64,000 nt of DNA from Escherichia coli (GTDB taxonomy: Bacteria > Pseudomonadota > Gammaproteobacteria > Enterobacterales > Enterobacteriaceae). The stretch is from assembly GCF_009931435.1 (NCBI RefSeq), contig NZ_CP043414.1. One strand, given 5' to 3'. Below, piece after piece: positions 1 to 2,855 of the stretch (the stretch's first letter is position 1; every line of letters begins with the position of its first letter). The notes under the pieces were generated by a model. The model was not told the origin of the DNA and ran no database searches. It was given only the letters and a program-made list of their open reading frames with translations. The translations under genes and the position numbers were made by a program.

Positions 1-406
1 TAGCCAGACATTGTACTTCACGAATTGCATCGTCATTACCTGCACCATCGAGCCAGACGTGGCCGGTGTAGATAAGTGAGAGGACACCATTGTCATCAAC
101 AGCACTACCTGAAAAACACCCGTCTTTGTCATTCTCGTCTCCTGGCGCTAGCGCAATAGGCTCGTGCTGCCAGTGGATCATATCGTCGCTGGTGGCATGT
201 CCCCAGTGCATTGGCCCCCAGTGTTCGCTCATCGGGTGATGCTGATAAAACGCGTGATAACGATTGTTAAACCAGATCAGGCCGTTTGGATCGTTCATCC
301 ACCCGGCTGGAGGCGCGAGGTGAAAATGGGGATAAAAAGTATTCCCCCGGCGCTCGTGAAGTTTTGCTAGTGCGTTTTGCGCCGCATGCAATCGAGATTG
401 CGTCAT
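1..406 (-). CDS. cscA: Sucrose-6-phosphate hydrolase / invertase (GH32), N-terminal part; gene continues beyond window start
   Basis: Minus-strand ATG at 404-406 with upstream AGGA; translation [16 protein letters not shown]...[12 protein letters not shown] carries the GH32 WMNDPNG signature; runs off the window. Confidence 0.85.
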
Positions 407-440
407 TTTAATCATCCTGGTTAAGCAAATTTGGTGAATT

Positions 441-452
441 GTTAACGTTAAC
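441..452. promoter_or_regulatory. Perfect 12-bp palindrome GTTAACGTTAAC, putative LacI-family (CscR) operator, copy 1
   Basis: Perfect palindrome with central CG in the cscA/cscK divergent intergenic region; identical second copy 64 bp away. Confidence 0.4.
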
Positions 453-485
453 TTTTATAAAAATAAAGCCCCTTATCTTTATAAA

Positions 486-501
486 TGTGATTAATATCAC
501 A
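486..501. promoter_or_regulatory. CRP (cAMP receptor protein) binding site TGTGATTAATATCACA
   Basis: Perfect match to both half-sites of the TGTGA-N6-TCACA consensus, centred between the divergent csc genes. Confidence 0.6.
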
Positions 502-504
502 AAT

Positions 505-516
505 GTTAACGTTAAC
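505..516. promoter_or_regulatory. Perfect 12-bp palindrome GTTAACGTTAAC, putative LacI-family (CscR) operator, copy 2
   Basis: Identical to copy 1, including flanking bases (aNtgttaacgttaact). Confidence 0.4.
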
Positions 517-621
517 TATGACGTTTTGTGATCGAATGTGCATGTTTTAGTAAATCCATGACGATTTTGCGAAAAAGAGGTTTATCACTATGCCTAAGTC
601 AGATGAATTTGAGGGAAAAAA

Positions 622-1536
622 ATGTCAGCCAAAGTATGGGTTTTAGGGGATGCGGTTGTCGATCTCTTGCCTGAATCAGACGGGCGCCTACTGCCTTGTC
701 CTGGCGGCGCGCCAGCTAACGTTGCGGTGGGAATCGCCAGATTAGGCGGAATAAGTGGGTTTATAGGCCGGGTGGGTGATGATCCTTTTGGCGCGTTAAT
801 GCAAAGAACGCTGCTAACGGAGGGAGTCGATATCACGTATCTGAAGCAGGATGAATGGCACCGAACATCCACGGTGCTTGTCGATCTGAACGATCAGGGG
901 GAACGTTCATTTACGTTTATGGTCCGCCCTAGTGCCGATCTTTTTTTAGAGACGACTGACTTGCCCTTCTGGCGACATGGCGAATGGTTACATCTCTGTT
1001 CTATTGCGTTGTCTGCTGAACCTTCGCGTACCAGCGCATTTACTGCGATGACGGCGATCCGGCATGCCGGAGGTTTTGTCAGCTTCGATCCCAATATTCG
1101 TGAAGATCTGTGGCAAGACGAGCATTTGCTCCGCTTGTGTTTGCGACAGGCGCTACAACTGGCGGATGTCGTCAAGCTCTCGGAAGAAGAATGGCGACTT
1201 ATCAGCGGAAAAACACAGAACGATCGGGATATATGTGCTCTGGCAAAAGAGTATGAGATCGCCATGCTGTTGGTGACTAAAGGTGCAGAAGGGGTGGTGG
1301 TCTGTTATCGAGGACAAGTTCACCATTTTGCTGGAATGTCTGTGAATTGTGTCGATAGCACGGGGGCGGGAGATGCGTTCGTTGCCGGGTTACTCACAGG
1401 TCTTTCCTCTACGGGATTAGAGACCGATGAGAGAGAAATGCGACGAATTATCGATCTCGCTCAACGTTGCGGAGCGCTTGCAGTAACGGCGAAAGGGGCA
1501 ATGACAGCGCTGCCATGTCGACAAGATCTGGAATAG
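622..1536 (+). CDS. cscK: Fructokinase (pfkB/ribokinase family)
   Basis: 304-aa ORF; N-terminal VWVLGDAVVDL and GG/AGD motifs typical of pfkB sugar kinases; GAGGG Shine-Dalgarno; position in csc cluster. Confidence 0.85.
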   Translation: MSAKVWVLGDAVVDLLPESDGRLLPCPGGAPANVAVGIARLGGISGFIGRVGDDPFGALMQRTLLTEGVDITYLKQDEWHRTSTVLVDLNDQGERSFTFMVRPSADLFLETTDLPFWRHGEWLHLCSIALSAEPSRTSAFTAMTAIRHAGGFVSFDPNIREDLWQDEHLLRLCLRQALQLADVVKLSEEEWRLISGKTQNDRDICALAKEYEIAMLLVTKGAEGVVVCYRGQVHHFAGMSVNCVDSTGAGDAFVAGLLTGLSSTGLETDEREMRRIIDLAQRCGALAVTAKGAMTALPCRQDLE

Positions 1537-1607
1537 TGAGAAATAAACGGCGAGGCCGTTCTTGTCTCTGAATAGGACGTGAATATTTTAACGACAGGCA
1601 GGTAATT

Positions 1608-2855
1608 ATGGCACTGAATATACCATTCAGAAATGTGTACTATCGTTTTGCATCCAGTTACTCATTTCTCTTTTTTATTTCCTGGTCGCTGTGGTGGTCG
1701 TTATACGCTATTTGGCTGAAAGGACATCTAGGGTTGACTGGGACGGAATTAGGTACACTTTATTCGGTCAACCAGTTTACCAGCATTCTATTTATGATGG
1801 TCTACGGCATCGTCCAGGATAAACTCGGTCTGAAGAAACCGCTTATCTGGTGTATGAGTTTCATCCTGGTCTTGACCGGACCGTTTATGATTTACGTTTA
1901 TGAACCGTTACTGCAAAGCAATTTTTCTGTAGGTCTAATTTTGGGGGCGCTCTTTTTTGGCTTGGGGTATCTGGCGGGCTGCGGTCTGCTTGATAGCTTC
2001 ACCGAAAAAATGGCACGAAATTTTCATTTCGAATATGGAACAGCGCGCGCCTGGGGATCTTTTGGCTATGCGATTGGCGCGTTCTTTGCTGGCATATTTT
2101 TCAGTATCAGTCCCCATATCAACTTCTGGTTGGTTTCGCTATTTGGCGCTGTATTTATGATGATCAACATGCGTTTTAAATATCAGGATCAGCAGTGCGT
2201 AGCGGCAGATGCGGGAGGGGTAAAAAAAGAGGATTTTATTGCAGTTTTCAAGGATCGAAACTTCTGGATTTTCGTCATATTTATTGTGGGGACGTGGTCT
2301 TTCTATAACATTTTTGATCAACAGCTCTTTCCTGTTTTTTATGCAGGTTTATTCGAATCACACGATGTAGGAACGCGCCTGTATGGTTATCTCAACTCAT
2401 TCCAGGTTGTACTCGAAGCGCTGTGCATGGCCATTATTCCTTTCTTTGTTAATCGGGTAGGGCCAAAAAATGCATTACTTATCGGTGTTGTGATTATGGC
2501 GTTGCGTATTCTTTCCTGCGCACTGTTCGTTAATCCCTGGATTATTTCATTAGTGAAGCTGTTACATGCCATTGAGGTTCCACTGTGTGTCATTTCCGTC
2601 TTCAAATACAGCGTGGCAAACTTTGATAAACGCCTGTCGTCGACGATCTTTCTGATTGGTTTTCAAATTGCCAGTTCGTTGGGGATTGTGTTGCTTTCAA
2701 CGCCGACTGGAATACTTTTTGACCATGCAGGTTACCAGACGGTTTTCTTCGTAATTTCGGGTATTGTCTGCCTGATGTTGTTATTTGGCATTTTCTTCCT
2801 GAGTAAAAAACGTGAGCAAATGGTGATGGAAACGCCTGTACCTTCTGCAATATAG
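1608..2855 (+). CDS. cscB: Sucrose:H+ symporter (oligosaccharide/H+ symporter, LacY-like MFS)
   Basis: 415-aa ORF, strongly hydrophobic with about 12 predicted TM segments; directly downstream of cscK. Confidence 0.85.
   Translation: MALNIPFRNVYYRFASSYSFLFFISWSLWWSLYAIWLKGHLGLTGTELGTLYSVNQFTSILFMMVYGIVQDKLGLKKPLIWCMSFILVLTGPFMIYVYEPLLQSNFSVGLILGALFFGLGYLAGCGLLDSFTEKMARNFHFEYGTARAWGSFGYAIGAFFAGIFFSISPHINFWLVSLFGAVFMMINMRFKYQDQQCVAADAGGVKKEDFIAVFKDRNFWIFVIFIVGTWSFYNIFDQQLFPVFYAGLFESHDVGTRLYGYLNSFQVVLEALCMAIIPFFVNRVGPKNALLIGVVIMALRILSCALFVNPWIISLVKLLHAIEVPLCVISVFKYSVANFDKRLSSTIFLIGFQIASSLGIVLLSTPTGILFDHAGYQTVFFVISGIVCLMLLFGIFFLSKKREQMVMETPVPSAI

Follow-up and report, generated by a model that had tools for sequence, protein, structure and literature searches.

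The start of the window (the whole stretch of 64,000 nucleotides that was analysed) carries sugar transport and degradation genes beside argW. The locus raises the questions of which catabolic system these genes form, whether they are intact and whether they were acquired recently. With a probability of about 0.93, they are part of the chromosomal, non-PTS csc regulon for sucrose catabolism in Escherichia, which stands at its usual site and, as read from the parts in the window, appears functional. The presence of csc genes beside argW is an ordinary finding and already known.

Genes and control region of the module

The 5′ part of cscA (positions 1..406, minus strand, start codon at 406) encodes a GH32 sucrose hydrolase (invertase). 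Codons 1–135 plus one base are in the window, i.e. 406 of 1434 nt (28%), and about 342 codons lie beyond its start. The N-terminal 135 amino acids matched Pfam Glyco_hydro_32N (E = 2.8e-44) and contain the nucleophile motif WMNDPNG at residues 36–42; this GH32 match covers the N-terminal part of CscA, the other 72%, including the RDP and EC motifs, being outside the window. Strains 2013C-4282 and 24A16CRGN010 have the same 135 codons (100% identity), and in both the annotation gives an intact cscA of 1434 nt.

The intact cscK gene (622..1536, plus strand) encodes a fructokinase of 304 aa (PfkB family) and is located directly upstream of cscB on the same strand, with a gap of 71 bp. CscK matched Pfam PfkB (E = 1e-58) and the NCBIfam fructokinase equivalog NF006957 (504 bits, cut-off 450), and has the motifs GGAPANVA at aa 28 and GAGD at aa 248. 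Its amino acid identity was 100% to 2013C-4282 and 98.0–98.7% to O157:H7 and O104:H4; dN/dS was 0.07–0.09.

The cscB gene (1608..2855, plus strand), also intact, encodes a LacY-family sucrose/H+ symporter of 415 aa (Pfam LacY_symp PF01306, E = 1.8e-191; TIGR00882, 590 bits; dN/dS 0.065), 100% identical at the amino acid level to WP_001197033.1, which is named cscB in RefSeq. The proton-coupling residues of LacY are conserved in CscB. In the alignment, LacY R144, R302, H322 and E325 were found as R147, R300, H320 and E323, D129 of CscB occupied the position of LacY E126, and CscB E270 was three residues off the E269 column. CscB is wild type at L51, C327, Q353, L363 and F371, the sites of low-sucrose gain-of-function mutations (PMC3938415).

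The coordinates of cscA, cscK and cscB were those of the RefSeq/PGAP gene calls in near-identical genomes. The genes were free of internal stops in the window, and the lengths were the same as in four comparison genomes. Against the common E. coli allele (O157:H7, O104:H4), dN/dS of the csc genes in the window was 0.02–0.09 at a nucleotide divergence of about 4%, and CscK, CscB and the in-window part of CscA were 97.8–99.3% identical to the O157:H7 and O104:H4 orthologues. Judged by these ratios, the csc genes in the window are under strong purifying selection, which would imply that they are used. A pseudogene or decayed module was rejected for the in-window parts on account of the low dN/dS and of reading frames without frameshift or stop. 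The original prediction had named cscA (GH32, with WMNDPNG), a cscK fructokinase and a cscB sucrose/H+ symporter; all three were recovered where it placed them, profile matches and alignment being in agreement. The frameshifts that would have spoken against it were sought and none was found in the in-window parts, where lengths were unchanged. As it also proposed, cscA, with its ATG at 406 on the minus strand, runs off the window edge.

The divergent cscA/cscKB control region (407..621, 215 bp) contains two 12-bp palindromes, exact matches to GTTAACGTTAAC, at 441–452 and 505–516. Exact matches number two in this region, as compared with 0.12 expected in the whole window, and both are unchanged across four csc alleles. 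They are putative CscR operators, an assignment taken from Jahreis (2002) as relayed by PMC11251922 and PMC3938415. A consensus CRP site, TGTGATTAATATCACA, is predicted at 486–501 from the same relayed description and is the only perfect TGTGA-N6-TCACA in the 64 kb. At this site the clade I allele, to which the window belongs (see below), has TGTGATTAATATCACA, whereas the common allele has TGCGATGAATATCACA, with a TGCGA half-site. Nothing promoter-like emerged from the csc control region in a generic promoter and terminator scan, whose hairpins were all intragenic.

The closest known system is the csc regulon (cscRAKB) of EC3132, W and O157:H7 EDL933. Genes, their order and orientation and their lengths (CscB 415 aa, CscK 304 aa) agree with it, and so do the chromosomal position from truncated dsdX/dsdA to argW and the divergent promoter region, in which two GTTAACGTTAAC operators accompany a CRP site. 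The window differs from this system by about 4% at the nucleotide level, by TGTGATTAATATCACA in place of TGCGATGAATATCACA, by a different and rare argW element, and in that part of the regulon is in the window. The scr regulon (scrKYABR; the PTS pathway of Klebsiella, pUR400 and some B2 E. coli) resembles csc in serving sucrose catabolism with a GH32 hydrolase, a PfkB-type fructokinase and a LacI-type repressor. However, scr uses the PTS EII transporter ScrA, the porin ScrY and sucrose-6-phosphate, whereas the window has an MFS symporter of the LacY family. No ORF for ScrA (PTS EIIBC) or the ScrY porin was found in 1–3300, where the MFS protein is the sole transporter, and a raf- or scr-type module was rejected on gene content.

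Chromosomal position and the argW element

The csc module was found in 2663 of 5426 complete E. coli genomes, as a single copy in each, and every match was chromosomal. A plasmid location was rejected: the four full-length PLSDB matches are records of 0.37–4.9 Mb, whose size makes misfiled chromosomes, whole or in fragments, the most likely explanation, and a Citrobacter match in PLSDB covers only 39 nt. In the seven E. coli genomes inspected the order was dsdA, truncated dsdX (dsdX′), cscR, cscA, cscK, cscB, a 429-bp spacer, the argW att site and argW. The argW side (cscB stop, spacer, att repeat) was seen directly in the window, and the dsdA side in relatives. In all seven genomes cscR was present, intact and convergent with cscA, and was followed by the dsdX remnant and dsdA. 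Since this order is constant in every genome inspected, the sequence right before the window start almost certainly holds cscR and dsdA here too; expected are 331 codons of cscR and a dsdX remnant of 219 nt.

The spacer (2856..3284, minus strand) travels with csc: it was detected in 2636 genomes, essentially the csc+ set, with about 91% identity to the common allele. It holds a decayed DUF4942 pseudogene fragment (about 2932–3129, minus strand, one internal stop; PF13708, E = 3.8e-6, profile positions 5–62 of 190). The right-hand limit of the csc block is an attR-type 21-nt direct repeat of the argW 3′ end, GATAAATGGTGTCCCCTGCAG, at 3285..3305. Homology to K-12 begins at 3290, next to pawZ, and the att repeat region is 98.3% identical to the attP-torI region of HK620/Sf6. 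As context, a 3.66-kb HK620/CPS-53-like prophage remnant inserted at argW follows (3306..6962), with torI (3379–3579, minus strand), a PACE transporter gene (4386–4844, minus strand), a LysR regulator gene (4948–5832, plus strand) and an intS fragment (6322–6636, minus strand). It is a clean insertion relative to the clade I strain WL297, in which the site is empty and cscB is 435 bp from argW. The tRNA-Arg(CCU) gene argW itself is at 6969..7043 (minus strand), its 3′ end (within 6963–6983) being the attL copy of the repeat. Specialised transduction was rejected as the vehicle of csc. Four ‘phage’ records with cscRAKB beside att and torI are, by their source paper, prophage regions predicted by PHASTER and excised from draft genomes, so they represent over-extended boundaries rather than DNA that was packaged. 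An artefact of this kind probably also accounts for the csc examples that PMC11251922 ascribes to a ‘coliphage’.

Truncated dsdX on one side and the argW att site on the other flank csc in clade I, O157:H7, O104:H4 and two further E. coli genomes, each with a different element integrated at argW; a variable argW-proximal location is also described in the literature (PMC3032704, PMC11251922, PMC7486766). The alternative occupant of the same interval, from the argW att site to emrY, is the D-serine locus dsdCXA of K-12 and UPEC, which is unrelated to csc in function and sequence; csc+ genomes have dsdC and most of dsdX replaced (PMC7486766, PMC3032704). The MG1655 argW–dsdA locus had no homology to window positions 1–3289, and MG1655 is without csc and scr (PMC11251922). 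The surroundings were thus well described by the original prediction, which had the module absent from K-12, at a variable argW-proximal site and with cscR and dsdA upstream, where they were found in every relative inspected. Its recombination hot-spot label gained support from the recombination of the same csc allele into the backbones of at least two ordinary E. coli genomes.

Host clade and exchange of csc alleles

The core at 30–42 kb was about 95.3% identical to ordinary E. coli (about 4.7% divergence), and that at 33–39 kb was 98.5–98.8% identical to 15 genomes, among them 2013C-4282, described in the literature as clade I (PMC10100065). Judged by this divergence, the host is an Escherichia cryptic clade I strain. 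The csc region was 95.6–96.3% identical to the common allele, i.e. about 4% apart, and a third allele, in Escherichia sp. MOD1-EC7003, was about 95% identical to both. An exact 40-mer from positions 1–40 had no match in the GTDB species representatives, and MOD1-EC7003 was the only match of a 33-mer from the conserved operator.

In strains NT1F25 and F11 (China) the backbone is E. coli sensu stricto, 99–100% identical to O104:H4, and a segment of about 6.3 kb, running from inside dsdA as far as the att site, is 99–100% identical to the clade I allele. By this comparison, in at least these two E. coli sensu stricto genomes tested, the resident csc allele has given way to that of clade I. The same replacement has possibly occurred in about 20 further complete genomes that carry the clade I allele.

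Substrate, origin and expected sucrose phenotype

Two readings would change what the module is or how it came to be here. The permease could serve raffinose or another galactoside and the PfkB protein could be an aminoimidazole riboside kinase, so that there would be no sucrose module. Older RefSeq/PGAP names for the same proteins (‘oligosaccharide MFS transporter’, ‘aminoimidazole riboside kinase’) point that way, and CscB also passes the NCBIfam ‘galactoside permease’ subfamily model. However, the current fructokinase equivalog is passed above its cut-off, identical proteins go under the names cscB and cscK in current PGAP annotation, and no alpha-galactosidase gene is present. Growth on sucrose is also lost on knock-out of cscB and cscA in lineages whose proteins are 98–100% identical to those of the window (PMC3938415, PMC10132054), and this reading is given almost no credence. 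A sucrose module recently imported through the argW/dsdA hot spot, in place of an old resident, is very unlikely, though somewhat less so. The locus does exchange alleles, as the segment in NT1F25 and F11 illustrates, but the entire 64 kb is clade I-like, not csc alone, and the same allele was carried at ≥99.8% by all 15 complete genomes of the window's core type. Moreover, the divergence of csc from the common allele matches that of the core, which argues for long residence; vertical inheritance within the clade, and not recent acquisition, is inferred from these matching levels.

In the preferred reading, that of a csc sucrose regulon, and after work on EC3132, W and EDL933, CscB would bring in sucrose with a proton, CscA (GH32) would hydrolyse it to glucose and fructose, and CscK would phosphorylate the fructose. 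The 215-bp region would drive divergent transcription of cscA and cscKB, activated by CRP-cAMP, and the LacI-type repressor CscR, expected just past the window start, would bind the two GTTAACGTTAAC operators. Because the CscB and operator sequences are wild type, tight repression at low sucrose would be expected, as in W and EC3132, with slow or high-sucrose-dependent growth. In the stronger form of this view, CscR keeps the intact genes silent or very slow at ordinary sucrose and standard tests are negative or delayed; this is possible, though the odds are against it. Among 29 csc+ scr− isolates on sucrose none was fast, 23 were slow or very slow and five did not grow (PMC11251922), E. coli W is induced only from 1% sucrose upwards (PMC3938415), and all known de-repressing or uptake-enhancing sites of CscB, like both operators, are unmutated here. 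On the other hand, a csc+ O26:H11 strain is fermentation-positive and serves as positive control on 1% sucrose MacConkey agar (PMC10132054), the perfect CRP half-site pair of the clade I allele might raise expression, and strong purifying selection speaks for gene use. Four of the five no-growth isolates were without visible lesion (PMC11251922), so intact genes are no guarantee of function. That the strain belongs to a sucrose-positive lineage is therefore plausible: a positive result would be likely but dependent on the assay.

The dsdX remnant and dsdA being expected upstream by synteny, D-serine use is probably impossible for this strain. The strain is thus marked as csc+ and, by synteny, probably dsdC/dsdX-negative, which predicts conditional sucrose use and D-serine sensitivity. 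This trade-off has already been described for EHEC and other lineages, and the finding adds little beyond annotation. The clade I origin, the csc divergence that tracks the core and the export of the allele refine the population genetics of the hot spot and leave the picture unchanged. It is a speculative and rather unlikely idea that the clade I allele, with its consensus CRP site in the cscA promoter, is spreading by selection and not by chance through an exchange of about 6 kb from dsdA to att. If this allele improves sucrose use, its spread would mean that mainstream E. coli has received it from a cryptic clade by adaptive introgression.

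Genes and control region of the csc module

The sucrose-utilization (csc) genes originally predicted at 1-2855 were confirmed there by the ORF list, a reading of the minus strand and Pfam and NCBIfam searches, which agreed. As predicted, cscA (minus strand, ATG at 406, 1-406) runs past the window start; 135 codons were seen, with WMNDPNG at amino acids 36-42. The cscK (622-1536, 304 aa) and cscB (1608-2855, 415 aa) genes are on the plus strand. In Pfam, the cscA product matched Glyco_hydro_32N (2.8e-44), CscK matched PfkB (1e-58) and CscB matched LacY_symp (1.8e-191). In NCBIfam, CscK scored 504 bits against the model NF006957, a fructokinase equivalog with a cut-off of 450, and CscB was assigned to the oligosaccharide:H+ symporter subfamily. 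These family matches are far beyond chance. CscA is called a sucrose phosphorylase giving glucose-1-phosphate in the Introduction of PMC11251922; the GH32 match and the WMNDPNG motif instead fit a hydrolase (invertase), in line with other sources and current RefSeq naming.

No internal stop was present in cscA (the part in the window), cscK or cscB, and gene lengths were the same as in four comparison genomes. Identity with the O157:H7 and O104:H4 alleles was 95.9-96.7% at the nucleotide level and 97.8-99.3% at the amino acid level. Since the amino acid identity is the higher of the two and dN/dS against these alleles is 0.02-0.09, the genes have been under purifying selection. The alignment of CscB with LacY structures spans both ends; Arg, Arg, His and Glu are kept at the positions of LacY R144, R302, H322 and E325, D129 stands at the position of E126 and E270 lies near that of E269. 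CscK retains the GG and GAGD motifs. Frameshifts in csc are known from other lineages, such as the T-tract and C-tract indels of CC119 (PMC10132054). None of this type is present in the csc sequence inside the window (28% of cscA, all of cscK and cscB, no cscR), so this check left the original prediction standing.

The cscA-cscK intergenic region is 215 bp long. GTTAACGTTAAC occurs twice in it, at 441-452 and 505-516 (0.12 matches expected in the whole window), and both copies are identical across the four alleles compared. Such 12-bp inverted repeats are CscR operators according to Jahreis et al., as cited in PMC11251922 and PMC3938415. Between the two putative operators, at 486-501, lies TGTGATTAATATCACA, the sole perfect TGTGA-N6-TCACA within 64 kb. 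At this CRP site, the allele of Escherichia cryptic clade I has the perfect consensus and the common allele (O157:H7 and O104:H4) has TGCGATGAATATCACA. Position 594, in the cscK leader/promoter region, is C in the window only and G in the other alleles compared.

In sucrose minimal medium, 0/29 isolates with csc and without the PTS-dependent scr regulon grew fast, 23/29 grew slowly or very slowly and five did not grow (PMC11251922). E. coli W needs sucrose at 1% or more, a requirement that mutation of cscR, an operator or cscB removes (PMC3938415); at the CscB sites concerned the window has the wild-type residues, and its operators are unmutated. A csc+ O26:H11 strain was positive on MacConkey agar with 1% sucrose (PMC10132054). 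Because published growth of csc+ strains thus ranges from none or slow to positive on 1% sucrose MacConkey agar, 'sucrose-positive' is a reasonable, assay-dependent prediction from the genes for the window's strain. With this caveat on phenotype, the original interpretation is supported.

The argW site and its occupants

The cscB stop is followed by a 429-bp spacer (2856-3284) holding a decayed DUF4942 pseudogene and found in nearly the same genome set as csc (2636 vs 2663 genomes). Next come 21 nt that duplicate the 3' end of argW (3285-3305) and recur at 6963-6983, argW itself (6969-7043, minus strand) and yfdC. Seven csc+ E. coli genomes were examined: two of clade I with the island, WL297, O157:H7 F8798, O104:H4, NT1F25 and F11-China. 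In all of them the order is dsdA, dsdX remnant (183-219 nt), cscR, cscA, cscK, cscB, spacer and att, with cscR convergent with cscA; the element integrated at argW is different in each. This constant order beside a varying element bears out the predicted location at a variable argW-proximal site. The same arrangement between the dsdA/dsdX remnant and the argW att is described in PMC3032704, PMC7486766 and PMC11251922, so a csc module beside argW is already known. In MG1655, dsdC-dsdX-dsdA fill the interval from the same att copy (pawZ) to emrY, and no homology to window 1-3289 was found in this interval, as expected from the claimed absence of csc from K-12.

The module is a common accessory one rather than a rarity: it was found in 2663/5426 complete E. 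coli genomes, chromosomal in all and single-copy in nearly all. Matches labelled 'plasmid' were rejected as plasmid-borne csc; these are records of 0.37-4.9 Mb, a size that makes chromosomal DNA deposited under a plasmid label the likeliest explanation. Phage carriage was rejected as well. ON470594, ON470589, ON470608 and ON470622 are labelled 'complete phage genomes' and contain cscRAKB, but they are PHASTER-cut prophage regions overrunning att, not virion genomes. The statement in PMC11251922 that csc occurs in coliphage genomes is probably based on such records.

WL297 (clade I) has an empty site, with 435 bp between cscB and argW. The window aligns with it as 1-3305 plus 6963 onward, 21 nt being common to both parts, so 3306-6962 is a clean insertion of 3.66 kb with 21-nt direct repeats. 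This island is what remains of a prophage of the HK620/Sf6/CPS-53 type. The end with att and torI shares 98.3% identity with the attP region of phage HK620/Sf6, and only a fragment of intS is left. It carries a PACE-family transporter gene (AceI-like 'chlorhexidine efflux', two Pfam BTP domains; 4386-4844, minus strand) and a divergent LysR regulator gene (4948-5832, plus strand). This pair is rare (13/5426 complete E. coli genomes, every one at least 99% identical). At 3599-3614, the 16 nt GGAATCGAACCTGCAA match an internal segment of argW (6983-6998) exactly. They stand shortly before the start of torI, some 290 bp away from the att repeat and inside a region homologous to K-12 CPS-53; joined to that repeat, they would restore more of the 3' part of argW, which torI here splits in two.

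Lineage and history of the csc allele

The window most likely originates from Escherichia cryptic clade I, since its core matches the group of 2013C-4282 at 98.5-98.8% (33-39 kb; 15 genomes) and ordinary E. coli at ~95.3% (95.1-95.6% with nearly all E. coli for housekeeping DNA at 30-42 kb). Strain 2013C-4282 is a complete-genome clade I strain according to PMC10100065, where ANI is >98.3% inside clade I and ~96% to E. coli sensu stricto. Identity with 2013C-4282 falls to 96.7% at 23830-29496 (flanks 98.3-98.6%), which suggests a local recombination patch inside clade I. Where K-12 has yfdF, between mlaA and fadL, the window has a gene of unknown function with a GC content of only 0.32-0.38 (~9282-10481, minus strand); it shows 73-91% identity between strains and is far more divergent than its neighbours. 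Tandem arrays at 29516-29966 and 42653-42997 (period ~91-94 bp, 3.8-3.9 copies, Rfam naRNA4 match) look like REP/BIME-type repeats; their copy number is unlike that in 2013C-4282.

All 15 genomes with the clade I core have the window's csc allele at ≥99.8%; in one, RMDEC465, csc is interrupted by an IS4 insertion. The clade I-type allele is present in 38 genomes, only 15 of which have that core. Two of the 23 carriers with another core, NT1F25 and F11-China, were compared. From lpxP to dsdA, both are 99-100% identical to O104:H4. Inside dsdA/dsdX', they change to 99-100% identity with 2013C-4282. The clade I-type segment (locus positions ~17000-23305) comprises the dsdA 5' end, dsdX', cscRAKB and the spacer; its limit at 23305 coincides precisely with the att site of argW. 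This indicates a ~6.3-kb homologous replacement, an allele exchange between lineages, whose direction, from allele frequencies, would be from clade I to E. coli sensu stricto. The description of the region as a recombination hot spot thus gains direct support.

In the remaining ~2600 csc+ genomes, identity with the window's csc allele is 95.6-96.3%, so the divergence of csc equals that of the core (95.1-95.6%). MOD1-EC7003, a representative of another Escherichia species, has yet another csc allele, the third, with ~95% identity to each of the first two; there, cscR adjoins yfdY/lpxP instead of dsdA, and dsdA through ypdI is missing beside it. The matching divergence of csc and core, together with this third allele, points to a module long resident in the genus and lost in some phylogroups, rather than a recent arrival in the window's genome.
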